Below are positions 16,780-64,000 of a stretch of DNA of 64,000 nt, piece after piece. This stretch comes from Prorocentrum cordatum. Its lineage: Eukaryota. The number at the start of each line of letters is the position of its first letter. The stretch's first letter is position 1. The position numbers and the translations under genes were made by a program. The stretch lies in assembly GCA_963575745.1 (NCBI GenBank), contig CAUYUJ010000001.1, positions 2,976,001-3,040,000 on the forward strand, read 5' to 3'. The notes under the pieces are model-generated. The model worked only from the letters and a program-made list of their open reading frames with translations, did not search any database and was not told where the DNA came from.

Positions 16780-16935
16780 GAGCTGTGCTGTGCTGTGCTG
16801 AGCTGAGCCGTGCTGGGCTGTGCTAGGCTGTGCTGAGCTGTGCTGTGTGCTGAGCTGAGCTGAGCTGTGTGCTGTGCTGAGCTGAGCTGTGCTGTGCTGT
16901 GCTGTGATGTGCTGTGCTGTGCTGAGCTGTGCTGT
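16780..16935. repeat. (TGTGC/TGAGC)n pentamer microsatellite
   Basis: Read directly from the sequence. Confidence 0.9.
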
Positions 16936-31715: not shown

Positions 31716-32626
31716 ACACCCCTCACGCAGATCGGCGGGGTCAGGGTCCAAAAACACAGGACTTGCCACATTTCTGACATTCGGTGGCACCCCTCATGCA
31801 GATCGGTGGGGTCAGGGTCCAAAAACATAAGGGATTTGCCACATTCTAAAAACCGGTGGCACCTCTCACGCAGGTCGGCGGGGTCAGGGTGCAAAAACAC
31901 ATGGGATTTGCTACATTTCTGACATTCGGTGGCACCCCTCACGCAGATCGGTGGGGTCAGGGTCCAAACACATAAGGGATTTGCCACATTTCTAACATCC
32001 GGGGGGCCCATGACGCAGATCGGCGGAGTCAGAGTCAAAAAACACATTGGATTTGCCACATGTTTGAACTTCGGCGGTACACCTCACGCAGATCGGCGGG
32101 GTCAGGGTCCAAAAACACAGAGGATTTGCTACATTTCTGAAAATCGGCGGCACCCCTCACGCAGATCGGCGGGGTCAGGGTCAACAGAAACACAACGGAT
32201 TTGTCACATTTCTGAAATTCGGCGGCACCCCTCACGCAGATCGGCAGGGTAAGGGTTCAAAAAGCACATGGGATTTGCCACATGCCTGACATTCGGCGGC
32301 ACCCCTCGCGCAGATCGGCGGGGGCAGGGTGCAAAAACAATTGGGATTTGCTACAGTTCTGAAATTCGGTGGCACCCCTCACGCAGATCGGCGGGGTCAG
32401 GGTCCAAAAGCACAGAGGATTTGCCACATGCCTGACATTCGGCGGCACCCCTCACGCAGATCCGTAAGGTCAGGGTCTAAAAACACAATGGATTTGCTAC
32501 ATTTCTGACATTCGGCGGCACCCCTCACGCAGATCGGCAGGGTAAGGGTTCAAAAAGCACAGGGGATTTGCCACATGCCTGACATTCGGCGGCACCCCTC
32601 ACGCAGATCCGTAAGGTCAGGGTCTA
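31716..32626. repeat. About 72-75-bp tandem repeat, about 12 copies
   Basis: cacccctcacgcagatcggcggggtcagggtccaaaaacac...gatttgccacatttctgacattcgg; an isolated extra copy at about 33900-33980. Confidence 0.92.
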
Positions 32627-44120: not shown

Positions 44121-45934
44121 CCTCCCTGCCGTCGCTCTGCCTGCTCCTTCCCCCTGGGCTCCTGCACGCCAGGGGCAGCCCAGCTTCTCCACACTGCTTC
44201 TGCTCCTCCTCCTCCTTCTCCTCCTCCTCCTCCTCCTCCTCCTCCTCCTCCTCCTCCTCCGCCCACCGTCCTCATCGTACCGCACCGCCTTCTCTTCATC
44301 TCTCCCTCCTACGTCTTTCCCCTCCTCCTCCTCCTCCGCCCTTCTTCTACTCGGCCCTCCTGCCCCTCCTCTTCCGACTGGTCTTGCTGCTCATCCGCCT
44401 TCTTCCTCCGCCTCCGTGTCCTCCAGGATCCATCCTACGTTCCACCCCTCTGCCTCTCTCAACCCTCACCATTATGTCACCCACCGGTTCCGACCCCATC
44501 TCCTTCCAAACAGGGCTGAGGTGGCGACAATCTACATATCTGTTCCCCTCTTCGGTACAGATCGTTTCGGGCCATCTGGCTTCCTCCTCCACCTCCCCTC
44601 ATCACCCTCATCCAACTCATGCCCCCACTTCACCTCCGACTCCGAAAAGATCCGCCATGGTGGAATAATCCACACTGAGCAAATCATACTTGTTTAAACC
44701 AGGACATCCACATGTCGGATTTCCAAAGGCTGCTCGCGTGCCTCTCGTGATCCCGCGTGAGTTTCCCAGAGGCCAGAGGGCCCACGACGGACCATGAGGA
44801 CCCTGCGAGACCCCAAAGACGGTCCAACTGAACTCCAAGACGGCCAGGAAGCGTTCCAAGGCGCCGAAGACAGACACAAGACGACCACAGAGGCTCGCAA
44901 AACGCCCCAAGATAGATACAAGAGGACCGCGCAGAGGACCCCGAGATGTCCAAACCAGTGATTATCCAAAATATGTTGGATTGTGTTAGCGCTATCGAAT
45001 GTTCAGGCTTCCAACACCCGAAGATGGCCCACGAGGCTCCCAATATTGCACTCCGACGGCCCCAGGGGCCTCTGAGACGGCCCCAAGGCGGCCCCAAGAG
45101 GGCACAGGAGGCACCCAAGAGGACCGCGCTGGGCCCCAAGAGGGCCCCGGGAGGAGCCCAAGAGGGACCCGAGATGAAACCCTGAGCCTTCTCACCAAAG
45201 ATGGCCCCGAGTCCGCCAGCGGGACCCCAAGGAGGCTCACAGATGCTGCAAACGTCCCCTGAGAGACCCTGAGACAGACAGACAGACAGACACCCTCTGT
45301 CGGGCAAGAGCCCGACCCAGGGCGGGGCGGGGGTGGCAGGCACCGCGGTGCCCCAGTACCTCGCGAAGCCCTCTCCCAGACTGCCCCATGCAACCGCGTC
45401 TGCAGCGCGAGCCACCCATGCTGGCCTCTGCGTGTTAAAACTCAGAATCCTGATCTAAGAGACCCCGAGAGGCATGCTGGAGGCCCCAGGCACGCCTCCG
45501 ACGTGCCCACAGGAGGTTCCCCAAGGGGACCCCCCAGGACGCCTCTGTGGTATGCCGCCCGTCCTCGACCCAGGCGCGGTGGCGGGATGGGCCGAAGGCC
45601 ACTGCGGTGGGGGCATTGGGTACGGAAGCATTGGATAGCCAGTGGAACTCCAATCGCGGATTGGCAGTGGATATTACGGCCGCCCTCATCAGATAAGGAA
45701 TCCTCCAGGGTCTGCAGCCTCCTGGGCGCATTCCTGAACCAACGCCCCCACCGTGGATCCGCCGCCCCCTGTTGGCTTGCCACAGGGGTGCCTGGCGTGC
45801 TGGATCCTACGGTGTTTGGTTTCGGTTCTTTTCCAACGGAGCCTTGGGGCTTCGGAGCCGCGGAAGGCCCACTTGGAAGGGAGGCCGGCTTGGTAAGCCT
45901 TACAAGCGGTTGCACCCTTTACGCTCTCTTACAG

Positions 45935-46126
45935 CGGGTTGCTACATATTTGATAACTTGTTCGCTAAACCTTCCTAGCCGTGATAGCTAATCAATTTAC
46001 ATCGGGTTGCTAGTGCGTTTACTATCGCGTTACCAAGGGTTAGCTAAATCCGCCTGTGGGGTTGAACGGGTTAGCTAAGCCCCGCTAAGTAGGTTAGCTA
46101 ACCCCCTAATCAAGTTAGTAACTCCA
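45935..46126. repeat. TTAGCTAA-rich AT-richer block (left of gene cluster)
   Basis: Multiple ggttagctaa/gggttgcta motifs; related in inverted orientation to 57817-58190. Confidence 0.55.
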
Positions 46127-46683
46127 GCGGAGCATTTTTTTGTTGTGTTCATGGGGGAGAAATAATGCTACGAGGTTGGACGCGTAACGAATTCCAGGCT
46201 GCGGCGGGTCACGTCGACCCCCCACTAAAATACAAATCGAAGCTACGATCGCCGAAAAATTCGCCAGACCCACCACGCGTGGCCGCCGAGGCGCGGTCAA
46301 AATGGATCGGGCTGCCGCCTAAAACGGCGACCTATCGTATCGTACGAGGGATCACAAGGCCTGGGCCCCTGGCGATAAAAGTGGGGCGGCGGAGTTGACG
46401 CTAGCCGTGATCTGTGTCGGGGGTCTTAGGGGGGACAGGGGGAGGGGAGAGGAGGAACGGAGCAGACGCTTTTCATTTCGGCACATCCTCACACGCTTCG
46501 TTGCCACATAGGTAGCTCCACGGAAGGCCCAAGTGTGCATGTTCATATGCTTCCCAGCATATAATTTCGGCACTCCCCTCACACGTTTCGACAGAGGATG
46601 GAGGGGGGGAATACCTGAAAAGGGGGAGGGCTAATCCACTCCCAGGTGGTGGGGGAGGAGGACTATAGTTTTTGTGCTATGCT

Positions 46684-48726
46684 TTACTCCACCAGCGCCA
46701 GGGGATGAAGTACAGTTAAGACAGCGTCGTTGCCACAAACGGTCAACACTTCAATCAAATCAACCAAGTCCGCAAACATAGGCTCACCTGACTTTGTCCA
46801 CGTGCTGTGCCAAGGCTTTTTTGTCAGGCACCTGAAAGGCTGAACTGCAGCGTACGGCACAGAATTCGTCGACGCAAAGAAAATCACCCGAGCAACGATC
46901 CAACCCGCAGTGGATCTGACAGCCACGAAATCACGAACCCATGCAACATCGAATTCGTTAAACCTGGCTTTGCCAGATGCTTGGTGGTCTGTTGATCTGA
47001 ACACTTCTGTTAAAAACTTGCACAACTTCTTATTCGGCGCAGTCGGCGCTACCAATCCTACAGCAAGGTCTAGCCAAGGTGCGTCGTGCAAGTTGAAAAA
47101 ACTCTCTGCCACAACTTCTCGGATCACGGCCTTTGTGTCTTTCTGATGGTCTTCTCCAAATTTGAGCACTGATTTATGTTTGCGCTCTAGCGGCAGCGTG
47201 TGGGGCGACCACCCCCACTTCGCCACGTAGGCTGAATGGTGCAAGATCGCATGGTGTTTCCACAACGCCCCGTCTGTGCCGAAAGCCTTCTCAGAGGCTC
47301 GAAGGAAATTCTCAGTGGCCCGCGCAATTGCCTCGCTTGAAATGCCCAATTTAGCCGTACTCCAATGGAATTGTACGAGCGTGCAACATGTGATAATCGC
47401 CTCGCATTCATCATTGTGCAACCCACTGGGAAGGATCCTGGTTCTGAAGAAATGTGCTATCGGGAGATGCATGCTCAGCGCCTCGGAAGCGCTGCAACTC
47501 CAATACGCCTTCTTCCAATTAGAGTCGGCCCGCTTTTGTTTCCACATGTCAATGCCTGTGACGCCCTTGCTTGATATTCGCCTCGGCCACGTGAAAGACT
47601 CCATGAATTTAAGAACGTGCGACGGTTTGAAGCCAGAGAAGCTAATCGCCCATAAGGCCAGAAATAGTGTTTGTTGAAATATGCCCTGGAGCAGATTGTG
47701 AACCCAATCGTAAACGTTTTGCAGCGGCGGGTCCAGGATTTCTCTCAGCTTACGATTGTGCAACATATTGAAGCCAGAATGCGCCCAACCACGGCGCTGT
47801 TCTTTATCTTCGAACAGCCCCTTTTTCATTGCAGGCTTAGACATGGCAAGGTCGTCGATTATGTGCAGCACCATAGCCTTGGTTGTAGGCTCGCATTCTC
47901 GAAGAGAAAAAACCTTGGAGTAATCTTTGAGATGGGCAGCCCCCTCGAGTTCACCAGCAGCAAGCCAGTTCTTGTTGACGATGTTGCAGCAGTGCAGGCA
48001 GCATTTCGTCCCCCCGCTCCCTTTGCAGAGCCAAACGCTGTGGAGCGCTGACTCATCGCCCAGCATGATGCTGAACACCGCGTGCAGCCTGAACCCGCTC
48101 CCGTCACCGTAGTCCACGTTTACGCCAGCATGCTCCAAATCGTGGCCATCTGGATTGAACATACGAAGTAAGACTGCACCCATGAGCTGCGCCATCCCAG
48201 CCTCGCAGTCCTGGATGTCCACGGTTCTGACGCAGCCGACGCAGAGCCAAGCGTCCTCTTTGCAAAGGACTGCCGCGCCCAGCTCAAGAAACGACATGTA
48301 CAGATTTTGCGTGGCCCTCTTATTCCACTGTTTGAGCTTATTACCAGGTTTGGCCTCGTCGCTGTAAATAATGATGTTCCATGGTGATTGCAACGAACAA
48401 GGCGCCTTTGCGCGCGCTTCCTCGAGGAAACAACGCCACCTGTTACATTTTCCTAGTGCGTGCAAGTATGGCACTGGATCTGCTATCTCGACATCCAAGG
48501 CCTTCCCTTTTTTGGTAGTTAGCTGTATTGTGCACATGACAGGTCCATACATTGTGTTTTGGAGGGCTTGCATGTCCCTGGCTGCACGAATGTCCTTCGT
48601 CGAACATGCATCTGGTAGCTCGCCCTGTTGAGCCAACTCGATGAATTTTGAGAGCGCAACCTTAGTTGTGTGAGGGAGCGCATACCTGATCTCCGATATC
48701 CTGCGGAGCTTCGCTGGCCTGTCCAT
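46684..48726 (-). CDS. CACTA/EnSpm-Plavaka-like DDE transposase, 680 aa, intronless
   Basis: IIIYSDE (D1), LGDESA (D2), KGSGGTKCCLHC, YDWVHNLLQG, KHHAILH, LERKH (E): the motif order of CMC-group transposases; uninterrupted ORF. Confidence 0.8.
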   Translation of the reverse strand: MDRPAKLRRISEIRYALPHTTKVALSKFIELAQQGELPDACSTKDIRAARDMQALQNTMYGPVMCTIQLTTKKGKALDVEIADPVPYLHALGKCNRWRCFLEEARAKAPCSLQSPWNIIIYSDEAKPGNKLKQWNKRATQNLYMSFLELGAAVLCKEDAWLCVGCVRTVDIQDCEAGMAQLMGAVLLRMFNPDGHDLEHAGVNVDYGDGSGFRLHAVFSIMLGDESALHSVWLCKGSGGTKCCLHCCNIVNKNWLAAGELEGAAHLKDYSKVFSLRECEPTTKAMVLHIIDDLAMSKPAMKKGLFEDKEQRRGWAHSGFNMLHNRKLREILDPPLQNVYDWVHNLLQGIFQQTLFLALWAISFSGFKPSHVLKFMESFTWPRRISSKGVTGIDMWKQKRADSNWKKAYWSCSASEALSMHLPIAHFFRTRILPSGLHNDECEAIITCCTLVQFHWSTAKLGISSEAIARATENFLRASEKAFGTDGALWKHHAILHHSAYVAKWGWSPHTLPLERKHKSVLKFGEDHQKDTKAVIREVVAESFFNLHDAPWLDLAVGLVAPTAPNKKLCKFLTEVFRSTDHQASGKARFNEFDVAWVRDFVAVRSTAGWIVARVIFFASTNSVPYAAVQPFRCLTKKPWHSTWTKSGEPMFADLVDLIEVLTVCGNDAVLTVLHPLALVE

Positions 48727-48740
48727 TTAACAAGCTGGGT

Positions 48741-48761
48741 CTTGAGCCAAAACAGGCTACA
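48741..48761 (-). other. SL relic 14 nt upstream of the transposase ATG
   Basis: TGTAGCCTGTTTTGGCTCAAG. Confidence 0.85.
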
Positions 48762-49369
48762 CAAACGCACATGCATGGACAATGTATTACACATATACAC
48801 ATACATATTACAATCACAAGCTAACGCACACCATTTGCGCACGACAAATAAGAGCACGTGGCCGCAATGATTGGCTACATATGTGTACTATGTTGTTGAC
48901 AGGTTGCCGTGTGACTTTAGGTTATGCGTAAATGTTGTCGTTCGTAGCTGTGCGTTGTTGTATGGTGTGCGCCAATTGTTCTTAAGCCGTCTTGGAGCGA
49001 TCGGTGGCCGCCTCAGGGCCTCAAGGGCTCTCTTAAGCAGTCTCGGAAACCATGCAAGACAGCCTTGAGGCCTCTTGGGGAACGTAGTTAGGCAATGATG
49101 GAACATATTGGTGCCATCTTGGGTCGTCTCGTTTGGCTGTGTTAGGCCATATTCAGGCATTGATGCAGTATTGGCAAGAGTGGCAGGCGCATGGGCAGCA
49201 GGGCTATCAAGAGCAGGAGCAACGTGAGCAGCAGGAGTTGCAGGAGCAGGAGCAGCAGGAGTGGCAGGATTGACAAGGAGGGGACAGGAAGAGGAGGATG
49301 CGTAGGAGAATGAGGGAAGGATGGCATAGGAGGAGGAGTGGGAGGAGGAAGGGTGGATGAGGAGGAGAA

Positions 49370-49455
49370 ACCAAAAACAACAACAATTTTCAAAATCAAA
49401 AATTACAGTCGGTCAAAACCGACAACAATTTCAAAAATCAAAAAATGCAGTCGGG
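49370..49455. repeat. About 45-bp A-tract/palindrome repeat (also at 51856-52019 and 56165-56280)
   Basis: aattttcaaaatcaaaaa..cagtcggtc...accgac units. Confidence 0.7.
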
Positions 49456-49684
49456 AGGAGGAGGATGAGAAGATGCATGATGATTCGGTTATGGTGAATG
49501 ATCATGTGGATGACTCGATTGTGTTTACTCTCAATCTTGTATATCTGGTTTAATACCAAACGTGATGTGCAAATGCGCACATTCGGCACAGCTGGCAAGC
49601 TGTCAAACCTAAGACAGATTGCATACCCATATGCTGTGTTGCACAGGAAGAGCGCCCACTGAATGCAAGCAGCACGCACAAGCT

Positions 49685-51469
49685 CTAGGCCGAAGCAAGA
49701 TCTTTGTATGCTTTGATGATGTTCAGAGCTTCGCTGAACGATTTGTCGGGGGAGTCACCGTACGGCACACACTTCTCAGCCCCACGCTTTGCGATGTTGG
49801 GCCAGACCCTCCAGCCGCCCTTTGAATTTGAATGCGAAACCCTACCACCTAGATACTCCACGGACCCACTCTCAGGCATCGGGGGGCGCTTGGCCACAGT
49901 ATGCGTCGAAGCAGCTGGCCTCTTGCCGACAAACGTGTTGACCGAACCGCCGCTCCTGCCTGCGCCTCTGCCCCGACCGCGGCCCCTGCCGCTCGTGGCT
50001 GCGCCCCTGCCAGCAACGGCCGCGGTGACAGCGCCGCCTTTGTTGCGTGACTCATTGCCGTCATCATCGTCTGACGCATCGGACTTGTCGCCCTTCTCAG
50101 CAGCCTTGGCAGCCTTGGCAACTGCCAGCGCCTTCGCCTCAGCGGTCGAGCTCGCGAGCTTGTCCTTCTTCGCCTTGGCCTTGCGAAGGAGCTCCTCGTA
50201 CTCAGTCTCAATGGCTTTAATCTTCTTCTCAGCTTCAGCAACTTCATCTGTTGAAGACTTGGCCCCGTCGAACTCGCTGAGCGCTGTGCCAAATGCTGGT
50301 CTCTGTGCACTTGGTGCAGGTGCCTCGGCCTTGTGCTGCCCGAGTGGCGCTGTCGGAGGAGGCGTGGTCGGGCTGACAGCGTTGCCGCTGCTGCTCGCGC
50401 CAGCGGGGCTCGCGCCAGCGGGGTTCGCGCCAGCAACGGAACGCGCAGGATGCTGCATCTGAAGTTGGAAAGTGCGGGGTTGCTGCGCACGCTGGTCAGG
50501 CGAGACCCACTCGATGGCCAGTGGCTGAGATGCCCAAGGCAGACCAGCAGCTGGAACCATCGACATCTGCTGGAAAGCTTGCTGTGGTGTCAGGCCTTGC
50601 TCCATTGCTGCGGCCATGAAGTCCTTGACGGGCATGTTGCCGAATGATCCAGCCGCACCAGCAACCATCGGCGTTCCACGCGTTTTCGGCAAGAGGTCCC
50701 TCACGTGCTTCCGTGAAGACCTGCAGCTCGTCAAATCCCTCACGACGAAGAAGTTACCTACCACCTGCGCGACTGGAGGGTCCGACGGGTCTGGGAACAT
50801 AGCCTGGAACACAGCTTCTGGAAGGTCGTGTGGGTTCGCGGGGTACTCCTTGACGAGAGGTAAGTCGGCCTCGGTCAGTAGAGCTGCGCGCGTCGTCTTG
50901 AACGACTTCGTCAACTTGCCAACCTCGTCGAACAGCTGCATGGCAGTCACGTCCTCGGACCAAGCATACATGGCGAGCATGGCGATGACGTCAGCACACG
51001 CTGGAGCGCTCGGTTTGGTCATACCACCGAGCTTCATGCGTTCGATGACAGTATGTATCTTAACTCCATCGTTGAATGGCGTAGTAGGGTCGCTGAAGAT
51101 GTTGAAGTCCGTCTGTGTGAAATAGTTCAGCACGTTTGAAGTATTCTCTTTCTTCGCAGAGAATGATTGGAACTCGTGTGGGCCAAGCTTTTCGGGCTTG
51201 AAGCTACGAATGAGTGTCTCCTCAACTGCGTCACTCAACGCGTGTTTCTGTGGTTCAGAGAACGCTGTCAATGAAATCGACTCAAGCAACTTCTTAGCAC
51301 CCTCACTGTCAACCGTGACGGAAATCGATTTGATCATTTGAACTATTGAAGAACACAGTGATGCACGGAGCCTGTCAGCCCTGACAGCGTCTCTGCGAAG
51401 CTGAACCTGTGTGTTGATCAAGGTTCCAGCGTCCCTGAGCTCATTAATGATCTTCTGGATGCTAGCCAT
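49685..51469 (-). CDS. 594-aa protein, probable element accessory factor; small C-terminal putative DNA-binding domain
   Basis: Long non-repetitive ORF: globular N-terminus, low-complexity linker, RGRGRG, C-terminal YLGGRVSHSNSKGGWRVW...SFSEALNII. Confidence 0.75.
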   Translation of the reverse strand: MASIQKIINELRDAGTLINTQVQLRRDAVRADRLRASLCSSIVQMIKSISVTVDSEGAKKLLESISLTAFSEPQKHALSDAVEETLIRSFKPEKLGPHEFQSFSAKKENTSNVLNYFTQTDFNIFSDPTTPFNDGVKIHTVIERMKLGGMTKPSAPACADVIAMLAMYAWSEDVTAMQLFDEVGKLTKSFKTTRAALLTEADLPLVKEYPANPHDLPEAVFQAMFPDPSDPPVAQVVGNFFVVRDLTSCRSSRKHVRDLLPKTRGTPMVAGAAGSFGNMPVKDFMAAAMEQGLTPQQAFQQMSMVPAAGLPWASQPLAIEWVSPDQRAQQPRTFQLQMQHPARSVAGANPAGASPAGASSSGNAVSPTTPPPTAPLGQHKAEAPAPSAQRPAFGTALSEFDGAKSSTDEVAEAEKKIKAIETEYEELLRKAKAKKDKLASSTAEAKALAVAKAAKAAEKGDKSDASDDDDGNESRNKGGAVTAAVAGRGAATSGRGRGRGRGAGRSGGSVNTFVGKRPAASTHTVAKRPPMPESGSVEYLGGRVSHSNSKGGWRVWPNIAKRGAEKCVPYGDSPDKSFSEALNIIKAYKDLASA

Positions 51470-51524
51470 TCCTACTCGTCACAACTATGTAAGTGACACG
51501 CGGGGAGCGATGAAACCACCTGCG

Positions 51525-51544
51525 CGTGAGCCCAAATTGCTACG
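51525..51544 (-). other. SL relic upstream of the 594-aa ORF
   Basis: CGTAGCAATTTGGGCTCACG matches SL CGTAGCCATTTTGGCTCAAG at 17 of 20 positions; 55 nt from the ATG. Confidence 0.75.
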
Positions 51545-52855
51545 CCTGAAAGCATATAACTTGTATATGTGAGGGATTGTTTTGTGTGAAGTAATGCGCC
51601 ATTCCGAACCACATACATATGATATATTCCAAATGCACATGTATTTGTGGTAACTCAACGCACAAATTCAATATATTGATCAATGTTCTGGCTCACCGCA
51701 GAGGTTCAGTCACACTGGAAAGTCGATCCCTTCTTGACCGAGGGAAGACCACGAACGATGCGGAGGAGGAGGATGGAGGATACTGTGTGAGGAGGATGAT
51801 GAGGGAGGAATGATGATGAGGAGTGGGTGGGAGGACGAGAGAGAATAATTAGGATATCAACGGCAATTTCTTATATTAGAAATGTGCGTTGATGAGAACC
51901 GACGACGCTTTTTGATTTTGAAAATTGACGTCGTCCCGTATCGACAGCACTTTTTGATTTTAGAAAGTGGCGGTGGTCCGGACCAACGTGGAATTCTAAA
52001 TTCAAAAATTGCCGTTGATTTCAAATATCAGCACCACAGGTGGTTAGTGAACCGAATTAGAAGCACATTGAGTGGTTCTGAACACCTTTGGGAGCACGTT
52101 GAGCAGTCTTAGTGCCATATTGGAGCTGTCTTTGTGGCCCTCTTGGGCTCTCTTGGAGCCGTCTTGAAACCAGTTTGATGTATCGTGGGCTGTCTTGGGG
52201 CCATCGTGGGCATCTCCTGGATTGCAGAAGATGGCATCAAGAGGGCACTTCGGTCCACCCGACGTGCGGTATTTATTAGAAACTACATACCTCCATATTG
52301 GGTTGCTATCTTGGGCAGTCTTGGGAGCGTCTTGGGCAGTCCTGGTGTCATTTCGGACCCCCTTGGGCCGTCTTGGGGCCATCTTGGAGCAATATTGGGT
52401 GCATCTTTGGTCGTCATGAGGCCATTTTGGAGGCCTCTCGGTCGATCTTCGGGCTGTATTGGGGGCCTCTTGGGTTCTCTTGTGCAGTCGGAAGGCCGAA
52501 ACTGCGCGAAGTACAGAAAACACAATTCACATCAATGGTTTTGAAACCAAGTCAACTTGGACAATTCACTTTTTTTTTCAAAACCTTCGCTGGGAGTGGC
52601 GGTTTCTGTAAAAATGCTACATGTGTCTTTGGCGCCGTCTTGGGCTTTTTTGGATCCCCTTGGGTCCCTCTTGGAGCCGTCTTAGAACCCCCTTGGGCAC
52701 TCTTGGAGCAGTCTTCCTCATTGTGACGATGCTTGTTTTTTTTAATCGCTGGCTACGCCTGGCTCGAGGAACTCCACGGCGCGCATCGCGCGTAGCAAAA
52801 CAGCTTGCACGCACAACAGCTCAAGCCTGACAGAATATCAACTGAAAGTGAAACT

Positions 52856-53503
52856 TCAACACACGGGCTCGATATCTGCATCTTCACCGCCGCACTCCTT
52901 CCCGACATCACAAGTTGATTCACGTGCTGACACCTTGCGCCTCTTCTCGTCACCCTTGGTGTACGTTCGCTTATCTGGCTCACTGATCTCCGTTGCACGG
53001 ATGAACAACCATTTCAGAACATTGGCATCGAGCGAGACCATAGCCTTAGTTGGCTTGACGTTCAATGGCATGTGTGTGTGTACCTCGCGGATCTCTTCCC
53101 CCGCCTTGGTCAGGAAAGCTGGGAGCACGACGTCCACGATCGAGCTCGACGTGCCCTCTTGGAGGTGCTGCAACGCCTTCTCCTGGGTCCTCCTGCGGTA
53201 ATCTGATTGCTGACCTCCGCGAGTGTTTGTAGCGCCGAGCTCCTGTTTGCTGGCTTCCTCCTGGAGCTTACACAACTCGGTAATGAGGACAGAAGCACGG
53301 GCTGAGTACGTTCTCTTGTTCACTAGCCAAGACTGCATCATCTTATCGCCTCGCTTCAGCTCGACGAAGTTTCTCCCTCCGACCGTCCGCACAGGCACGC
53401 CACACCAATCGGGGTGAGTGTTCACAGGAGAACTGATAGTCACAGTCGTAGTGAATGTGATATCTTTCATCACTGAAGTATGGAAGGGAACTGGTTCCGA
53501 CAT
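52856..53503 (-). CDS. 215-aa hypothetical protein (start MSEPVPFHT)
   Basis: Non-repetitive part of track ORF 52856-53827; the ATG at 53503 lies 50 nt downstream of an SL relic. Confidence 0.65.
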   Translation of the reverse strand: MSEPVPFHTSVMKDITFTTTVTISSPVNTHPDWCGVPVRTVGGRNFVELKRGDKMMQSWLVNKRTYSARASVLITELCKLQEEASKQELGATNTRGGQQSDYRRRTQEKALQHLQEGTSSSIVDVVLPAFLTKAGEEIREVHTHMPLNVKPTKAMVSLDANVLKWLFIRATEISEPDKRTYTKGDEKRRKVSARESTCDVGKECGGEDADIEPVC

Positions 53504-53553
53504 CGAAACAGTGAAATACACCTGATGCGGAAATCTGAATGAACGCAATATGC

Positions 53554-53573
53554 TTTGAGCCAAAACGGCTATG
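53554..53573 (-). other. SL relic upstream of the 215-aa ORF
   Basis: CATAGCCGTTTTGGCTCAAA. Confidence 0.8.
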
Positions 53574-54425
53574 TACACACGTACGCACACACGCACGCAC
53601 GGTGGGAGGAAACGAAGGATGCAGGAGGAGGACGAGGATGAAGAGCAGCAGCAGGAGCTTGAGTGGAAACAGTGGGAGGAGCAGGAGGACCAGGGAAAGG
53701 CGGAGGAAGGAAAATGAGGTGGGCGACAACATTGAGCAATGCCTCGGATCTTGAAAAAGGACCGCGTTGGGGCGAGAGCGCCATTCTGAACGACGGGAGC
53801 CCCCACCCAAGATGCCCAAGGCCCCAAGATGCCCTTAAGGCCCCAAATACAGCCAGCCAGCCAACCAACAACCCAACCAACCCCTGGCCGTGCTACGCGA
53901 ATTGTATGCGAGGCCCCAAAACACCTAAGGCCCCAAGATGCCTAAGGCCCTAAAATGTCCAGAAGGCAAAACATACAGCCAACCAGCCAGCAAGCCACCC
54001 AAACAACCTCTGGCCGTGCCACGCGAAGCGTATACGAGTCCCCAAGACGCCTAAGGCCCCAAGATGCCTAAGGCCCCAAGATGCTCCTTAGCTCACTGGG
54101 CCTTGAAAGGCCGAAGACCTCGGAGGACCCCGAGGCACGCGGGGCACCCAGGCCCTCAGGGGCCGTCGCCCATTCCAGCGCACCCCTCACACGGATCGTG
54201 GAGTCTGGACGTGAAGGGCCGAAGGCCTATGGATAAGGGATCCGTTGAAAGGGGGTAGTTCTTTCTGTACCCCCGTCCCCCCTCATCCTCCTGTCTGCTT
54301 CGCCTCTCATGTTTTGCATGTGCAGCTGCACGCCAAAAGGGCTTCGCAGCGTGACGGTGCAGCGTCGTCGCTTCGGCCTATGCCGCAATCCACACGCGCA
54401 GTCGCAACGGCTGTAAAGGAACTAA

Positions 54426-57356
54426 TTAGCGGCGGGACCGCTTCGCTGGCGAGCCGATTTCACTAGACGGTGTCTCGTGAGGAACTGGGACGCCCTGGTA
54501 CAGCATCTCGCCCTCCTTTACCTTTCGGTGGTTCTTCAGCATGGGCAGCTTGACCTCCATCTCATCTGCGTCATCGCCAGTCTTGAGATGCAAGTTGATC
54601 TTGTGGGTCATCCAAACCGTAGTGAGGTTGGGCTGCCACACTTGGTTTGCAAACGGAACACACCAAAATGGTGATACGAAATTCTGATTCTCGCCCTTGC
54701 CGGCCGCGAACTGCGGCATGAGGTGGAAAAGCGTGCGAGGTACCCGCACTAATTCACCCAAATCGATTGCCCTATCTGGGGCCTTCTGGTCTGGCAAACG
54801 GGTCTTAATGAATTGTGTCGCTGGCACAAGCGTGATCTCGCCTGCTTTGAAATCCCGTTTCGCAACCACAGCGTAAGGGTTGTGGTACACCTTCAAGTCG
54901 TGGTTGATGTTGTTCCAATGAGCATTCTCGCTCAGAGCGTTGAGGACGATGGTGATCTGCGCCTTCATGCAATCAAGTGCCCAGCTCCAGTTCGTCTCGG
55001 GAACCACGCTCATGACGTCGACCTCCTCCTGCGGCTTACTGGTAGACACGCACCAGAGGTCCTTGAGGTTGGCCAGCATTACGGAGTTATCCTCCAACAA
55101 GCCTTCGTGCACGCCAGTCGGGGAGAGGATGGCCGTGGCGATGCCCAACTCTTTCACGGTCCACAAGTTGCACTGGCATTCAGGATCAGGTTTTTTCAAT
55201 TTGACCACAGCACCAAGCTTGAACCCAAGCTGCATCATCTGAAACGCTGGTGACTTGGCATCTTGCAACTGCTGCAGCGCCAAGTGTTTCGCCTGCTCGG
55301 GCGCTTCGGGTTTGCTCTCGACGGTCGAGACGTTCCCCGAGGACGCAGAGGCAACCTCGGAAGTCAAATTACAAAACAACAATCCTCCTTCCTCCCTTCC
55401 TCTATCCTCTCATCCCTCACCCCTCCTCCGTTCCGTCCCTTCCCTCCGAGGGAGGGGGAGGAGGAGGAGGGGGGGGAGGAGGAGGGAGGAGGGGGAGGAG
55501 GAGGGTGGAGGAGGAGGCGGGGGAGGGATGAGGAGGGAGGAGAAGGGTGGAGGAGGAGGCGGAGGAGGAGAGAGAGAGAGAGAGATAGACAGACAGACAG
55601 AGAGAGAGAGAGATAGGAAGAGGAGGATTTTTTCATGTGCTACGATCACCTTGCCGACTTGCTTCGCGCCGATCCTGTGGCGCGGGAGGAAGGGGTGGTC
55701 GATCGCAATGCCCGTAATGGCAGCCAAGCCGTCGACGAAGACCTGGAAGGCAGCGTCCAGGGACTTGTGCTCCACGCCCTCCTTGCTGGCCTTACCCTTT
55801 TTCATAAGGAACAGCGCCAGCCGAATGTCGTGCTGGCCCGTCAACTCAAGCTTCTTGATTTTGTCGAGCCCGTAGTTGTCGCACATGGTGCGGGCCTGCT
55901 CCATCATGCTCTCGGCCCGCTGCACGTCGTCGTAGATGGACTTCGCAGTCAGCTTCGACAGGTCAGCATCCTTCAGCAAGCACGCCCTATTGTCAATCAC
56001 CTTCTCGATGGGGGAATCCATCTGCGCGAGCAGCGCTGCAACTCGGATCCTCATCGGCGGAACCACTGATTTCGGCCAGCTCAGCGACGCCAGCTTGTCG
56101 AAGAAGACGCCGCCGACGTGGCCGAAGGAAACACCAGCTCCGCGCGGCGCCTGACGCTGACAGACGACGATTTTTGATTTTAAAAATTGCCGTTGGTCCT
56201 GACCAACTGCATTTTTTGATTTTGAAAATTGCAGTCGGTCCAGACCGACTGCACTTTTTGATTTTAGAAAACTGTTGGTGTGGTTAGTTCCTCCTCCTCC
56301 TCCTCCGCCTCCTCCTCCCTCTCCTTCTCCTCCTCCTCCTCCCCCTCCCCCTCCCACTCATCCCACTCATCATCATCACCCGTGTCCGCCCCCTCCTCCT
56401 GGCCTTGAACAGTGCCACCTTCATGTCGCGAGCCTCCTCCACCAACTCCCTCGGGACAACGCTAGCGAACTTCTTCAAGGACTGCGCCCATGCTGCCCAG
56501 AACGGGTTCGTGAGCAACGCGCCATCGACCGCGGCCTGCCACGCCAGCTTGTCGTCCTGCACATTGAGCTCCTCCACCTGATGTTTGAACGTCGAGTGCA
56601 TGGTCAGCAAGCCCTCGAGCTCCGAGACCTCAGACGTGTCCACGCGGTTCAACGCCGCGTAACCAATCTGGATGACCTCTGGGAAGGCCTTGATGACTTC
56701 AAAACTGACCACGGTCCATTCCAGCCCCCTGGAAAGCGCTGTGTTCAGGCTCGGCCACTTGGTGATGAGGAACTGCGAATCCAAAGAGCCGCTGGGCGCG
56801 ATGGTCTCATCGGTGCATGGCAAGGCGGCCTGGATGGCGCGCAGAGTCACGTTGGAGTGCGTGCCGCCGAAGGAAGCCAATTCCATCTTCTCGCAAGGTG
56901 GGAGGCCGCACTTCCTGCTGTGCTCTTCATTCCAAGAAATCCAGCCGCCGCACGCATCATCAGTGGTCGGAACCTCCACGGCGAACGCGCCCTGGCAGGC
57001 TCGCGGGTAGCTCCAGCCAGCCCTGCAGTGCTTGCCGAGGTTCGACAAGCTCTTCTGCACCTTGGAGTCCTCCTCCTCCACCTCCTCCTCTTTCTCCTCC
57101 TCCACCCCCTCCTACACCTCCTCATCTACCTCCTCCTCCTCCTTGGCACCTCGAAGCCCAAGCCGCCGCGATTCTGCGGCGAAGCGCCGACCCTGGTCGG
57201 CGCGACCGTGGTGACCCGCAGGAGCTCCTTCTTGCTACCGAGGATCCCGAGGATGCTGTCCCAAGCCTTGACCACCTCCGCGTCCTGCTTGAACCGACAG
57301 ATGACCTGCCGCAAGTCGCCGCTGACCTCCCGCAGGGCCTGCTCCACGGCTGGCAT
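54426..57356 (-). CDS. 4-exon gene, about 764 aa: ParB/Srx-like N-terminus plus degenerate SET-like C-terminus
   Basis: Exons 57356-57150, 57060-56404, 56150-55650 and 55355-54426 join in frame. Introns are GT-AG (89 nt), GC-AG (253 nt) and GT-AG (294 nt). Motifs: VGASPQNRGGLG, FGGTHSNVTLR; VVAKRDFKAGEI...PNL...LKNHRKVKEGEML. Confidence 0.7.
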
Positions 57357-57394
57357 GGTTGCAAAAGCGCCAGGCCGATCGGAGCGAAGGCGAC

Positions 57395-57414
57395 TTTGAG
57401 CCAAAACGGCGATG
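57395..57414 (-). other. SL relic upstream of the 4-exon gene
   Basis: CATCGCCGTTTTGGCTCAAA, 38 nt from the ATG. Confidence 0.75.
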
Positions 57415-57816
57415 CGAACGACGACGCCAGGCAGCCCCAAGATGCCCCATGGCCACAGGAGGCACCAGGAGGCACCTGCAGGAGGCACCAGGAGGCGTCA
57501 GGAAGTCCCAGGAGGCTCCAGGACTTTCCAGGACTTGCCAGGAACTCACAGGAAGTTCCAGAAAGCGCCAGGAAGTCCCAGGATGCCCCAGGAAAGAAAC
57601 ACCAAGGGAGCTCAGGATGCCCCAGGAGGCTCCAAAATTTCCCAAGAGACCGCAGGAGTTCCCAGGATCCGCCTAAAGCCCCTCAGGATGCCGAAGGAGG
57701 CTTCAGGAAGCCCCCCCTAGGCCACTATGAGGCCCCAGGAAGCCACAGGATGCATCAGAGAGCCATATGAGGCCCCAAGAGCCCCAGGAAGTCCTAGGAG
57801 GCCCCAGGAGGCTCCA

Positions 57817-58190
57817 GGAGGTTGCTAATCTTCTTAGCTAAGCCGCTAACTCACTTAGCTAACCTGATTAGCTAACTAGCTTAGCGGCTTAACCTAAGGA
57901 TGTTAGCAACCCTTGCAAGTCACGTGCTAACACGTTGCCAATCGACGTCCGCAATATACCTAACGCAATGTATTCCTTTAGCTATATCGTCTATCATGAT
58001 ATAGGCATGCGGTGGCGTTGGTAACGACTTGTATAACGAACCCTAAGCCGCTAATGCGTTGCAACAGTTATAAGCACGTTATAAAAGTTATCAAGATGTT
58101 ATTGGGAAGTTGCTAAAGAGTTGGTAGAAGTTGCCAGAGGCTTAGCAAGTTGTTATAACGACGACAAGTGTTAGCAAACCCGGCACTCTT
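57817..58190. repeat. TTAGCTAA-rich block (right of gene cluster; similar sequence again at 58945-59083)
   Basis: ttagctaa occurs three times within 57835-57875, plus ttagcaaccc and aagttatcaa. Confidence 0.55.
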
Positions 58191-58239
58191 CCAAGCAGAA
58201 GCGACCTCCATGTCCACAATACCACAATTCCGCCTGACG

Positions 58240-58925
58240 CTGTCCGGGCGCCCGGGCGGCCCGCGGGCGTCCGGGCGGCTGGGCGCCCGGGCGTCCGGGC
58301 CGCCCGGGCGTTCGGGCGCCGAGCGCTCTGGGCGTCCGGGCGGCCCGGGCGGCCCGGGCGTCTCGGCGGCTGTGCGGCTGGGCGCTGTCCGGGCATCCCG
58401 GCACCCGGGCGTCCGGGGCGCCCGAACGGCCGCGGCGTCTGGGCGGCTGGGCGCCCGGGCGTCCGGGGCGCCCGGGCGGCAGCGACGTCCGAGCGGCTGG
58501 GCGCCCGGGCGGGCCCTCCGGCGTTCGGGCGCCGGCGCTCTGGGCGCCCGGGCGGCCCTGGCGGCCCGGCGGGGCTGTTTCGCTGGGCGCCGTCCGAGCA
58601 TCCCGGCGCCCAGGCGTCCGGGGCGCCCGAGCGGCCGCGGCGTCCGGGCGGCTGGGCGCACGGGCGTCCGGGCCGCCCGGGCATCCGGGCGCCGGGCGCT
58701 CCGTGCGTCCGGGCGCCCGGGCGCTCTGGGCGTCCCGGCGGCCCGGCGGCCCGGGCGTCCGGGCGGCTGGGCGCCCGGGCGCGTCCGGGCGGCTGGGCGC
58801 CCTGGCGGCCGCGGCGTCCGGGCGGCTGGGCGCCGGGGCGTCTGGGCCGCCCCGGCGTTCGGGCGCCGGGCGCTCTGGGCGTCCGGGCGGCCCGGGCGGC
58901 CCGGGCGCCCGGGCGGCTGGGCCGC
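58240..58925. repeat. Extremely GC-rich (CCGGGCG/GGCGTCC)n degenerate repeat
   Basis: Read directly from the sequence. Confidence 0.85.
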
Positions 58926-59177
58926 TGCTGGGATCACCGCTCTGCTTAGCATGTGGATAGATAGCTTATATCTACTTAGCCGTCGACATAACATACTTAG
59001 CTAAGCTACATAGCGCGCGCCCGCTATCCAAGTTAGCAGGGCCGCGCTAACCAGGATAGCCTAGTCGGTCTATCCTAGATAGCACGTGTGGCCGCACGTC
59101 CCGCGGCCCCATAGGAAGCTCCACACACACACACACACACGCGCACACACACACACACACACACACGCGCGCACACT

Positions 59178-59238
<61 letters not shown>

Positions 59239-59455
59239 GCACACACACACACACACACACACTCTCTGGCACAACCCTCACACGTTTCGTGGCCCAACAT
59301 GTGTGGCCACACCCAGTCTGGCACACCCCTCACACGTTCCGTGGCCCCGCATGCGTGGCCACACCCACTTTGTCACACCCCTCACACGTTTCGTGGCCCC
59401 GTGTTCTGAGATCGTCGTCGTCGTCCTCCTCGTCGTCGTCCTTGTCCTCGTCGTC

Positions 59456-59494
<39 letters not shown>

Positions 59495-59783
59495 TGCTCT
59501 GGAGTCGGCGGGGGGGGCGGAAGCCCTACGTTCTGCTGGGGGCGGCGGGCGGGGCGCAACCCTGGATCTGCCCACATAGCGAAACGCCCCCAGCAAAGCG
59601 CCCTAAATAGCAAGGGGGGCGCGGAAATGGCAGAAGCCTACGGAATAGGAAGGCGGGGGGGAGGGAGCGACGACGACTAAGACGACGACGACGACGAAGC
59701 TCCGAACGGTCTGCGGCCAGAGCGGTCTGCGCTCGCAAGCTCCGAGCGGTCTGCGGCCAGAGCGGTCCTGCAAAAACCGCTGA

Positions 59784-59823
<40 letters not shown>

Positions 59824-60129
59824 TCGTCCTCCTCGTCGTCGTCGTCGTCGTCGCCCTCGTCGTCGTCGACGTCGTCGTCCTCGTCGTCGTCGTCGTCGTC
59901 CTGTTCGCCAAGTCGCACGATGCCCGACTCGGCGCACGGGAGCGGTCTTCGCTCGCAAGCTCATTCATGAGCTGTCCTGCAAAAAACCTCCGAGTCGTCG
60001 TCGTCGTCGTGGTCTAGCTGTTCACCTCGTCGTCGTCGTCGTCGTGATTCGGTTCGGCCAGTTCGTCGTCGTCGTCGTCGTCGCCGCCGCCGCCGTCGCC
60101 GCCGCCGCCACCCTCGCCGCCGCCGTCGC

Positions 60130-60160
<31 letters not shown>

Positions 60161-60688
60161 CCAAGAGGCCTCCAATACGGCCCAAGAGGCCTCCAAGAGG
60201 TCCTCCAGGAAGGCCCGAAGATGCCAAAATCACCGATTCCCCTTAGGTTGTTGAAGGGTTTTGGCATTTACGCCTTTTCGGCCTTCCGTCGGCCGAAGAC
60301 GGCCCAAAAGGCCCCCAAGGTCGCCCCAAGAGGGCCCCAAGACGGCCCAAGAGGCTTCCAAGACGCCCAAGATGGCCTCCAAGATGGCCCTGAGGCGCCC
60401 CAAGAGGGCCCCAAGTCGGTTCAGGGAGGCCCCCAAGACGGCTTCCGACGGCGTCAGACGGGCCAGGAACGCCCTAAGACGGCCAAAGAGGCCCCCAAGA
60501 GTATGGCCGCCCGCCTCGGAGCGATTGGCCTCGTCGTCGGGCGGGGTGAAGGGCTCGCCCTGCGTGGCCATCTCGGGCTGGGGATCTCTCGGGGCTGGGG
60601 GAGTCCAGGTCTGCTGCGTTAAAGCTGGGGGCCAAGGATGGCTGCGGACTCAGAGGGGCCGCAAACACCCTAACAGCAGTGAGAGTGA

Positions 60689-60795
60689 CCCCGATGGTTG
60701 TCCCGATGGTTGTCCCGATGGTTGTCCCGATGGTTGTCCCGATGGTTGTCCCGATGGTTGTCCCGATGGTTGTCCGAATGGATGTCCCGATGGTT
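60689..60795. repeat. 12-bp tandem repeat (CCCGATGGTTGT) x about 9
   Basis: Read directly from the sequence. Confidence 0.93.
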
Positions 60796-61226
60796 ATAGC
60801 CGCAGCGCTCGAGAGGGGCGACCCCGGACCCACAACCAAGGCACGGTGGCTGATCAGATGGCGAACTTCCACGATCGTCGCAAGCTCTCGGTCCTTCTGG
60901 GGGTCGGCTGACGAGGAGGAGGACGGGATGATGATGATGAGGATGATGATGATGAAGGGACGTTTCCACGCGAGCAGCGCCGCGAGCGCGCGTGCAGGTA
61001 CAACTCAAACGTCATGCGTGTCTCCTCGCGTGTGTCCTCCTCCTCCTCCTGCTCCTCCTCCTCCTCCTCCTCCTCCTCCTCCTCCTCCTCCCTCTCATTC
61101 CCGTTATCGCCATCATCATCCCAATCCATAGTCACTTTGCTCCTGCTCTCCCCCCCTGTCCTCATCCCCTCCCCCTCCTCACCATCCGCCTCCCTCCATA
61201 AATACACGGCACCACCCATCTTTACC

Positions 61227-63417
61227 TTATGGGGGTAAAGCACCGTTGCAACAGAACCTGCAGCAGCAGGAAAAAAACACACACGGTTCTATGATGTTAT
61301 GGGTCTGGTACAGACCTGGAGCACTCCAAACTATACACTTTGCCGCACTGGTGCCCATCTCCTGGACATCCCACTCCGATATGCACGAAAGTAATTTGCC
61401 GCCCACTTTCGCATGAAAGAGGACCTCCCCGAACGCAACCTGATGCGAAGCGTTACTGCACGCAACGCAATCCCCAATGCAGACTGCTCTACCGCGCACA
61501 AAGCAGGATGACGAACTGACAACATCCTTCTCGCTGCCGATGGGCAGAGGCAAAACTTTACTGATGGACGAAATGAGCTGGCGGCTGGCGGGCTTAGGGC
61601 CCAAGAGGTCCACGCCGAAAAGTGCATGATGCTCCACGTCGTGGAGGTGCTGCAGCGTCACCTCCTGCATTATGCCTTTTTCATACCCTTTCGTATTGTG
61701 CCGCCCGCCAGCAAAGCGCTTTATAACGCGATGCTTCCTCTCCATGAGGAAAGTTGAGAGGAGGCATCTGTGCCGCTCCAATTGAGATGGCAAATGGAAA
61801 ATCCAATGGTCCTTCGGCTTAAAAAGCTGGACCCCGTAGACCGCTCTGTGGCGCTCCATGTGGGATGAAATCGCCTGGGCTAGCATGAAAGGCTGCACGT
61901 GGCCACAATTGGCCATGATCAACAAGTTAATCACATCGCACGAACAAAATGCACTAATAATCTCGCCCTTAAGCTCATCTGCGCCATCGGCGTTCGAAAC
62001 CACATCGCTGAGATACCGCTGAAGAACGGGCGCGAGCGAAACATATTCACTTGCGGAGCCCTGCATTGTTCCACCACTCATGGTATTCTTTGCATGCGCA
62101 TAGCCCCTCGGCCAGCACCAAGCCTGAAGATAATCGCGCAGGCAGTCGTGTCCTCTACGAATGCTCGACAACCTACCCAGCATCTCGTCCACCTCCCTCT
62201 CGAATAGCCCACCTATCATATAGCAGTGCATCCAGTCCCAAGAGGTGGCCTCCGCAACTGGCACCGCCAGATGCCTGTCCTGGAGGAGGCCGTCGCGCTG
62301 GTAGGACCACCCGAACAAGACCTCGAGCCGCTTGACCTCGGCCCACCGTCCAGCATCGGCTGCATCACTGAGGCGCCGCTGAACCGCCATGATCTCCTCG
62401 GTCGTGTAGAGATCGAAGAGGCTGACGTCGGTGCAGTGCGCTGGGATCAACCACCCAGTCGGGTCAGGGGGAAGATCGCTTCTGGGGCACACGACGTTCT
62501 TGCGCAGCATGCAGGGCTTGATGCCCGTGGCGCCCTTCACCTGCAGCACGAACTTGCGGGCCCGCTCGTCCTGGATCATGATCTGCAGCTTGCCCTGCAG
62601 CATCGCGACCTAGGGGCGGGGCTGCCACCGTCCTCTTTCCCATCCTCCTCCTCCTCCTCCTCCTTATCCCCCTCCCCTTGCCGACCCTCCGCCCTCTCGT
62701 CGTCGTCGCCACCCTCCCCGCACGGGGGAAAAAATCACGCACCCCTCCATGGAGGGAGGGGTGGTTCGGCGAAGTTGGGGGCGGGGTGAGTAGCATGGGG
62801 GGGCGTCGGACCTGGCCGCCGATGCGCAGAGCAACTCCACGTCGGAGATCGGGCCCTGCAGGCAGGCCGAAGAAAAGCTTCAGGCACTCCTTCATCACCG
62901 TGGACACGCCACCTACCACATCGTCCAAGATGCTGCTACGCATCGCGGCAATGGTGTTCCAGCAGAGCTCGTTGCTGAGGGCCGGAAAACCGAGCTCGGC
63001 AAAGCTCCAATAGAATGCTTGCGTCTTGCGACGGTTCTTGCCGTCCAAGACGTTGCCAGGGACGATCTCGTCGCTATAGATATACACGTTCATCGTCCCA
63101 TGATGCTTGGCCGCCAACTCGAGGAACATCTCCTGGTACGAGGGTGATGTCCTGCAGGCCGCCTCGAGCCACGCGAATGGATGCTGGAACCACGCGCGCA
63201 CGTCCGATGACCCGAGCCGCTTCTCCACGAGAACGGGGCCGAAACTCGTGTCCTCCATGACTCTGGCCTCGCGGTGCCTGGCCAAGGTCGACGCGCTGAA
63301 CGCCTCGGGGAGGCCCTCCCTCTGGATGTCGGCCATCAAGGCGGCCGTCGCGGCGGCCGTCGCGTGGGACGACCTGCCGTACACGACAGTGCGCATTCTC
63401 TTCGGAACAGAAGGCAT
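61227..63417 (-). CDS. Second CACTA/Plavaka-like transposase, 2 exons (63417-62812, 62609-61227), about 662 aa; possibly decaying
   Basis: YIYSDE..PGN, FYWSFAELG, IQDERA, KGATGIKPCML, WDWMHCYMIGG, KPKDHWIFH, MERKH are collinear with the 680-aa ORF. A GT-AG intron at 62610-62811 restores the frame. Confidence 0.8.
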
Positions 63418-63447
63418 AGCTTCTGAGAGCTGGTAAAGCCAGAAACG

Positions 63448-63470
63448 CTTGAGCCAAAAATGGCTACGGT
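63448..63470 (-). other. Near-perfect full-length SL 30 nt upstream of the second transposase ATG
   Basis: ACCGTAGCCATTTTTGGCTCAAG is the canonical SL plus one T. Confidence 0.92.
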
Positions 63471-64000
63471 GTTGCCGCTGATGTTTATGATTTGAACTGT
63501 CGGCGCAGGGTTGTTGCGCCCCGCGTCAGCAGTGTGCAATATACCGTTGCTAGCTATGGGGCCGTTTGCTTGCTTGCTCGCTTAGTTTAAGTTGCTGCTC
63601 TGGTTGATGCTGAATCGCTCTTGCTGGAGCGTTGGTGTGACTCTTAGTTCTTGCCACGATCGTTGATGCTGCTATGTTTGATGCTGAATCACTCTTGATC
63701 CGATCTCTGATGCTGCTCTTGCTTGGATCGCTGGTGTAGCTGGCTTCTTCACTGATGCGCCCTGCTGCTTGGGCGCGTGCGACGATGCGACTGCCGTGGC
63801 GCGCGGCTGCTGCCACCCGCCATTGTTGTGACGCAACGCAGGGCGCCGAAAGCTCCCCAGCCCAAACGAGGCAGGACAGGGGCAGCGAGGGTGCGGAGAC
63901 AACCATTTCTCACCAAAAGGCCAACGCAACATGGGTGCTTGCATCCGCAGCTGCCTTCCCCTCGCCCTCCTCCTCCTCCTCCTCCTGCCCCTCCCACGTG

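Follow-up and report, generated by a model that had tools for sequence, protein, structure and literature searches.

In dinoflagellates, genomic relics of the spliced leader (SL; DinoSL) are attributed in parts of PMC3229502, which cites Slamovits and Keeling 2008, to mRNA recycling, whereby nested relics are cut after their first AG and the AG is proposed to favour the relic's own persistence. Relic DinoSL are also described in a portion of PMC7245778, and for the relics of retrogenes a role as basal promoter or as acceptor has been proposed (Song et al. 2017, PMC5585692; passages of PMC6050394 and PMC12014239). Among DNA transposons, the nearest described system is the giant four-gene Plavaka (EnSpm/CMCT) of the red alga Bostrychia, which according to sections of bioRxiv 10.1101/2025.02.11.637652 is 17-19 kb long and encodes a CMC/Transib (CMCT) transposase and three accessory genes including a ParB-like and a SET gene. 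The CMCT clade comprises EnSpm/CACTA, Mirage, Chapaev, Transib, Plavaka and ESTA (PMC12730594). Here we analyzed 64,000 nucleotides of Prorocentrum cordatum DNA (assembly GCA_963575745.1, contig CAUYUJ010000001.1, positions 2,976,001 to 3,040,000 of the forward strand), hereafter called the window, in which five genes of two neighbouring DNA transposons are headed by SL relics. We consider it somewhat probable that these relics arose by mRNA recycling and have long been retained by selection for the first AG, which would be the trans-splice acceptor of each gene.

Relics in front of the transposon genes

Both strands of the window were scanned for the core TTT(T/G)GGCTCA. Five occurrences were found between 48743 and 63459, each of them on the minus strand, while 0.21 were expected under an order-3 Markov model of the window. 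The leader motif is of the dinoflagellate type (PMC7245778). The genes concerned were labelled S1 (46684-48726), S2 (49685-51469), S3 (52856-53503), S4 (54426-57356) and S5 (61227-63417), and in all five the distance from the end of the relic to the ATG of the open reading frame (ORF) or first exon is 14-59 nt. The relics are as follows:

57395..57415, minus strand: SL relic before S4, the first gene; core 57397-57406; internal TAG lost, reads TCG
53554..53574, minus strand: SL relic before S3; core 53556-53565; TAG present
51525..51545, minus strand: SL relic before S2; core 51527-51536; TAG present
48741..48762, minus strand: SL relic before the transposase gene S1; core 48743-48752; TAG present; 14 nt to ATG
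63448..63470, minus strand: SL copy before the transposase gene S5; core 63450-63459; full length with one extra T

A preliminary description of this DNA, made from its letters, had reported such a relic for each of five genes, an internal TAG in four of them, a full-length copy at 63448-63470 and relics before two strongly diverged transposases. All of this was borne out, the relic at 57395 being the one that lacks the TAG and the two transposases, S1 and S5, sharing 20-30% identity. The idea that the five genes represent five separate elements was rejected, as four of them belong to one element (45872-58195, element 1) and the fifth to its neighbour (element 2).

The same arrangement was observed throughout the family. 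The 30 best loci were taken from each of five gene searches, and 145 loci with enough upstream DNA were grouped into 48 lineages at 85% nucleotide identity. A relic score of at least 21 was reached by 127 of the 145 loci and by 43 of the 48 lineages, compared with none of 48 control windows inside coding sequences. A sense copy of the leader directly before the start codon and nested relics, produced by splicing at the first AG and truncated after it, the latter clear in two of ten scored S2 lineages (L157, L165), are the marks by which relic DinoSL are known. A nested-relic score of at least 12 was obtained for 8 of 43 lineages and for 4 of 172 controls.

Between lineages the relics are far more alike than their surroundings. 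In the 154 lineage pairs with less than 65% amino acid identity, likeness was 0.29-0.31 at fourfold sites, 0.23-0.32 (ungapped) in the adjacent 21-nt flanks and 0.69-0.76 in the relic; the corresponding values for the eight pairs with 65-95% amino acid identity were 0.51, 0.32-0.37 and 0.79. Taken together, the saturated values are about 0.30 for fourfold sites and 0.26 for flanks. Since fourfold sites and flanks are nearly random, the relics must have been either kept or renewed.

The letters that are kept were counted in the 43 lineages. Position 4 is T or C in all of them, G15 and C16 are present in 42 each, G6 in 40, A5 in 38, A9 in 28, T13 in 27 and the last G in 24. For comparison, a genome-wide pool was gathered by a pattern with freed positions, the first 100 matches being counted by hand. 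The positions A5 and G6 accounted for 8 of 53 substitutions over six positions in the lineages (3 of 40 without S4, 0 of 17 in the transposases) and for 20 of 35 in the pool (Fisher p=5e-5; 0.002 without three double-change rows), which however consists mostly of near-perfect young relics at the heads of retroelements, where 5'-truncated leaders may look like changes at positions 5-6. In a second pattern, in which eight other positions were left free, 5 of 48 substitutions in the lineages and 14 of 32 in the pool fell on C7 and C16 (p=0.001). The first AG was kept in 36 of 43 lineages and in 15 of 20 distinct host relics, the terminal AG in 20 of 43 and 17 of 20, respectively.

Forms that would be produced by splicing at the first AG were also seen. 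In S1 lineage G (L017, L018, L020, L023) the relic itself contains the start codon, with ATG following CCGTAGCC. Other lineages have the full leader, then CC or C, then ATG, the form expected if the relic of S1 lineage G had been spliced at its first AG and reinserted. An apparent loss of the AG before first genes (kept in 3 of 8, compared with 39 of 42 downstream genes, p=0.001) was not trusted, as it goes back to about three events only and as two further S4 lineages, which were left out because of low scores, carry AG-bearing words resembling the relic farther upstream.

Origin and retention of the relics

According to the favoured reading, genes would have entered the element, or been overwritten in it, as cDNA made by the machinery of the abundant SL-headed non-LTR (long terminal repeat) retroelements, and the element would still move as DNA. 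Single copies would decay almost neutrally, and only lineages with trans-spliceable genes would continue transposing, so that the AG would be filtered over long times. Occasional cDNA would renew or nest the relic. Many host genes are likely under the same rule, the transposon family offering replicate lineages in which to see it. Of the alternatives named in the preliminary description, selection for an acceptor and recycling through cDNA, both seem to operate.

Apart from the composition of the pool, several observations weigh against this reading. When recent copies within a lineage are compared, the share of variable sites does not differ between the relic (26 of 665), the DNA upstream of it (76 of 1860) and the untranslated region (UTR; 36 of 854; p=0.91), i.e., 0.039 in relics and 0.041 in flanks, and five of the 26 variable relic sites fall at positions 5-6. 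The ratio of nonsynonymous to synonymous polymorphism (pN/pS) in the coding sequence of these copies is 0.61, and with coding constraint so weak the test has little power, yet it gives function no support. The comparison of relic and flank proposed in the preliminary description favoured conservation between lineages (0.69-0.79 in relics, flanks saturated) and equality among recent copies. Neutral decay and absence from most copies had there been named as contrary to function; the former was found among recent copies, whereas relics are present in most lineages. Furthermore, the lineages are related and not independent, in four relatives from metagenomes the relics are weak, five gene starts at three loci having scores of 15-21, and the relics before S4 have the first AG in only two of six scored lineages, though the GGCTC core is retained. 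An acceptor role can therefore not account for all retention.

Host genes carry relics as well. They were found at 23 of 57 loci for E2 enzymes and small GTPases, with a similar substitution spectrum, which also counts against the reading. These loci were selected for a match near the start of the domain, and the figure is a minimum, as some first exons may be more distant and some loci are duplicates or pseudogenes. Relics are more frequent in the transposon genes (43/48 versus 23/57, p=2e-7), but a transposon-specific feature had to be rejected. What remains of the preliminary description's proposal of functional relics in front of transposon genes is long-term retention beyond saturated neutral sites with a first AG depleted of changes; specificity for transposons did not hold, and constraint among recent copies gained no support.

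That the relic is instead a DNA signal, either a basal promoter or a protein-binding palindrome AGCC-N5-GGCT, or else a cis-encoded leader at the presumed transcription start, appears improbable to us. GGCTC (positions 14-18) is the best-kept block of the relic, the S4 lineages A, B, C and G have the core without the first AG, some copies lack any AG between relic and ATG, and such a role has been proposed for host retrogenes in passages of PMC5585692 and PMC6050394; a promoter or cis-encoded leader would best explain S4 and the GGCTC core. The T-tract named in that proposal, however, is unprotected. An intact TTT(T/G) was seen in 29 of 43 lineages, and T10 and T12 took 14 of 48 substitutions in the lineages and 9 of 32 in the pool, so that the T-tract promoter considered in the preliminary description gained no special support. 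Moreover, three S1 lineages lost the 3' half of the relic and kept only CCGTAGCC, in one of them immediately before the ATG, and nested relics require transcription starting upstream of the relic.

We think it unlikely that renewal without selection suffices, i.e., that the relics are neutral footprints whose apparent youth comes from cDNA that time and again overwrites genes within the element and resets the leader, even though pure renewal would explain the neutral rate among recent copies. Three signs of cDNA traffic were noted, the nested relics of S2, an intronless S4 and an SL-headed 160-aa ORF in element 2 (68983, window numbering). In S4 lineage G (L126, L127) all three introns are absent, while intron 2 is retained at the common codon in its sister F (support 94/95), a difference suggestive of loss via cDNA; lineage K (L128, L131) lacks the first two. 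Several of the S4 intron donors are GC or other non-GT words. The 160-aa ORF has a near-perfect leader, lies behind a (CCT)n tract and is missing in two relatives of element 2; it is likely, judging from these features, a retrocopy captured by the DNA transposon. Material for renewal is plentiful, as the genome contains 15,271 exact copies of the 21-mer leader and 51,370 copies with at most three mismatches (control 130). Among the first 30 exact leaders, 25, as counted by eye, follow a simple repeat, and four have an exact nested relic. The repeats are (CCT)n, (GGA)n and others, with long ORFs downstream. When 20 exact leaders were extended downstream and 38 ORFs scanned, seven gave matches to RVT_1 and three more to RNase H (10 of 20). 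The 15,271 exact leaders may stem mainly from SL-headed non-LTR retroelements.

Renewal alone is nevertheless difficult to reconcile with the introns. Intron 2 of S4 is found at one codon in seven of nine lineages, its lengths and sequences differing, and four of these lineages have a scored relic; the intron of S5 is common to L081, L083 and L085, all three with relics. As renewal of whole genes through cDNA would strip introns, the relics of genes whose old introns lie 200-600 nt from the start count against it. In addition, renewal predicts the substitution spectrum of the pool, but A5/G6 and C7/C16 are depleted of changes in the lineages, and derived states are common to sister lineages (A9G in S1 and loss of the TAG in S4, each in A, B and C). 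An RNA hairpin in the 5' UTR (AGCCA/TGGCT stem) is very improbable and was largely rejected, because, although the leader folds into a stem at -5.1 kcal/mol whose positions are among the best kept, only 17 out of the 55 stem pairs that had changed retain pairing, nearly all as G-U and with no clear two-sided change, and splicing at the first AG would cut away part of the 5' arm.

The favoured reading can be extended to a model that we regard as doubtful. The transposons might have been assembled from retrocopies in an operon-like fashion, a single precursor being cut into mRNAs at the relic AG of the downstream genes and the relic of the first gene, in which that AG is often missing, acting as promoter or genome-encoded leader. 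Further cDNAs would overwrite or add genes, and the element would move as DNA and renew its cargo via RNA.

Anatomy of the two elements

Element 1 is a four-gene DNA transposon, the features of which are listed below:

45872..58195, minus strand: element 1, cut-and-paste DNA transposon of 12,324 bp; gene order S4, S3, S2, S1 (transposase)
58171..58195, minus strand: left imperfect 25-bp terminal inverted repeat (TIR), starts CTTGGAAG; target site duplication (TSD) TG at 58196-58197
54426..57356, minus strand: S4, accessory gene with four inferred exons; introns about 57061-57149, 56151-56400 and 55381-55620
52856..53503, minus strand: S3, accessory ORF of 215 aa without family match
49685..51469, minus strand: S2, accessory ORF of 594 aa without family match
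46684..48726, minus strand: S1, intact gene for a predicted 680-aa DDE transposase of CMCT type
45872..45896, minus strand: right TIR, ends CTTCCAAG; TSD TG at 45870-45871

Element 1 is bounded by an imperfect inverted repeat of 25 bp, CTTGG...CCAAG. The 12.3-kb sequence recurs in three other contigs with 96.9-99.9% identity, unrelated flanks and sharp ends, and a fourth contig holds a duplicate of the whole neighbourhood of element 1. Over 27 kb (window 41673-68668, G000:C6315:27465-54518) identity is 99.5%, the junction of both elements included; the counterpart may be a segmental duplicate or an uncollapsed haplotype. With ends taken from the boundaries of sister copies, a TSD of 2 bp was found in all 18 family copies in which both ends could be located (22 contigs tried), while 3 bp fits once.

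The order S4-S3-S2-S1 is constant across subfamilies at 40-72% amino acid identity, and each element gene has dozens of homologues, largely on common contigs. The trees of S1 (calculated without one short row), S2 (calculated by a quick method) and S4 share the clade (B,D)(A,C), which includes the window copy, indicating that the genes travel together. Two intergenic spacers (49384-49454, 51860-52019) and intron 2 of S4 (56158-56270) contain, in both orientations, a repeat unit of 42 bp with TTTTTGATTTT..AAAA. The words GTTAGC/GCTAAC are dense in both orientations at 57820-58195 and 45872-46130 and also near the ends of other lineages; these subterminal words are possible binding sites of the transposase. 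Dozens of near-identical sequences with open frames of 320-371 aa are distantly related to the middle exon of S4 (E about 1e-7), which suggests a further element family of high copy number whose accessory gene is related.

The structural model of S1 (predicted local distance difference test, pLDDT, 83.8) matched RAG1 best in Foldseek (E 2.9e-6, template modelling score, TM, about 0.45), followed by RAGL and Transib. D123, D224, CxxC, DxxH, HxxxH and E514 are conserved in the alignment, and YSDE, GDES, CxxC, DWxH, HxxxH and ERKH are present in most of 16 aligned transposase rows, the catalytic roles being assigned by motif order rather than structural superposition. By its modelled RAG1/Transib-like fold, its DDE residues with C(2)C and H(3-4)H, and the TIR and TSD of the element, S1 is a DDE cut-and-paste transposase of CMCT type. 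Neither the 16 aligned members (E<=1) nor 40 of the 150 relatives listed (E<=0.01) gave a match to a Plavaka or EnSpm transposase of Pfam, and the termini are CTTGG..CCAAG and CTGGG..CCCAG instead of the Plavaka/EnSpm motifs TGT..ACA, CATCA..TGATG or CAC..GTG. The element was therefore filed as CMCT-type and not as Plavaka. A profile of S1 retrieved 6,788 related clusters (50% cluster level) at E<=0.001. Among relatives in metagenomes, the N-terminal part of S2 was present at two of four loci and its C-terminal end at a third.

Pfam revealed no family above the cut-off for the element proteins or for 66 other ORFs of the window, and a sequence search of the PDB gave no match. The C-terminal strands of the S1 model gave weak Foldseek matches to the DNA methyltransferases ZMET2 and MET1 (E 0.02-0.04, 93-127 columns), a part which is possibly a BAH-like domain. 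In S4, words that look ParB-like and SET-like were noted by eye, for which Pfam gave no support. A single-sequence model of an intronless S4 relative was unusable (pLDDT 33) and the ESM Atlas yielded no usable match for it; owing to the failed model these words remain impressions.

Element 2 adjoins element 1 and extends beyond the end of the window:

58928 to 76271 (window numbering), minus strand: element 2, 17.3 kb; window part 58928..64000; ends CTGGGATCACCGC...GCGGTGATCCCAG; TSD CA
61227..63417, minus strand: S5, transposase gene and final gene of element 2; single intron at about 62610-62802, also present in two sister lineages

Element 2 has five relic-headed genes here, four of which lie outside the window (relic ends 75748, 71046, 68983 and 66718), and two relatives of it have four each. 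In the window copy of S5 the second Cys of the CxxC motif is replaced by Arg, and the alignment to an intronless relative ends about 27 residues before the terminus. To judge from its sequence, this copy may be decaying. Elsewhere in the window there are two tandem arrays, one at 13970-16780 with 31 copies of a 90-bp unit (93% match), the other at 31717-32624 with about 12 copies of 73 bp.

Comparison with described systems

As an element, the closest counterpart is the Bostrychia Plavaka. It has a similar multi-gene CMCT layout, the accessory genes being compared by description only; leader relics are not reported in the sections of the preprint on these elements, and the transposase described here lacks the Plavaka or EnSpm match in Pfam. 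With the CMCT clade, as characterized in parts of PMC12730594, the elements share a DDE with C(2)C and H(3-4)H, a RAG1-like fold and a 2-bp TSD, the latter as in PlavakaA and some PlavakaB. They differ in the termini, which in the clade are CAC..GTG, TGT..ACA or CATCA..TGATG and here CTTGG..CCAAG or CTGGG..CCCAG, and in a TSD that is not fixed to TA. With 6,788 relatives at the 50% cluster level, the elements represent a large CMCT family of multi-gene transposons, and their termini differ from those given for the named lineages in the literature covered.

In the literature covered, mostly main texts of open-access papers, there was no account of relic-headed genes in dinoflagellate DNA transposons, nor of these elements; the relevant portions of PMC9651163 and PMC11453091 added nothing on transposons with relics. 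The main text of PMC5585692 contains neither the word transposon nor the word transposase; its supplements list 'DNA mobility' families. As an acceptor or promoter role of the relic has already been proposed in print, the anatomy of the elements and the test for selection are what is new here. The debate on whether a relic is a dead footprint, a promoter or a splice acceptor has so far drawn on motif counts made in bulk. With their four or five relic-headed genes and dozens of lineages in which neutral sites are saturated, the elements provide a replicated test, and the compact intergenic layout makes the question cheap to settle.

The relic-DinoSL genes treated in sections of PMC3229502 and PMC7245778 resemble the genes studied here in having genomic leader copies directly before them and nested relics. 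They were described as host genes, whereas here the relics head genes of DNA transposons with TIR and a 2-bp TSD. The retrogene relics of PMC5585692 are, in the passages on their position and motifs, alike in their distance to the ATG (0-90 nt) and in the AGCC that is singled out, and TTT(T/G) is intact in 62-72% of them compared with 29 of 43 lineages here. The proposal made there names the T-tract, while in the transposon genes protection falls on the AG and on the GC of GGCTC, so that our test favours the first AG and the GC core over the T-tract.

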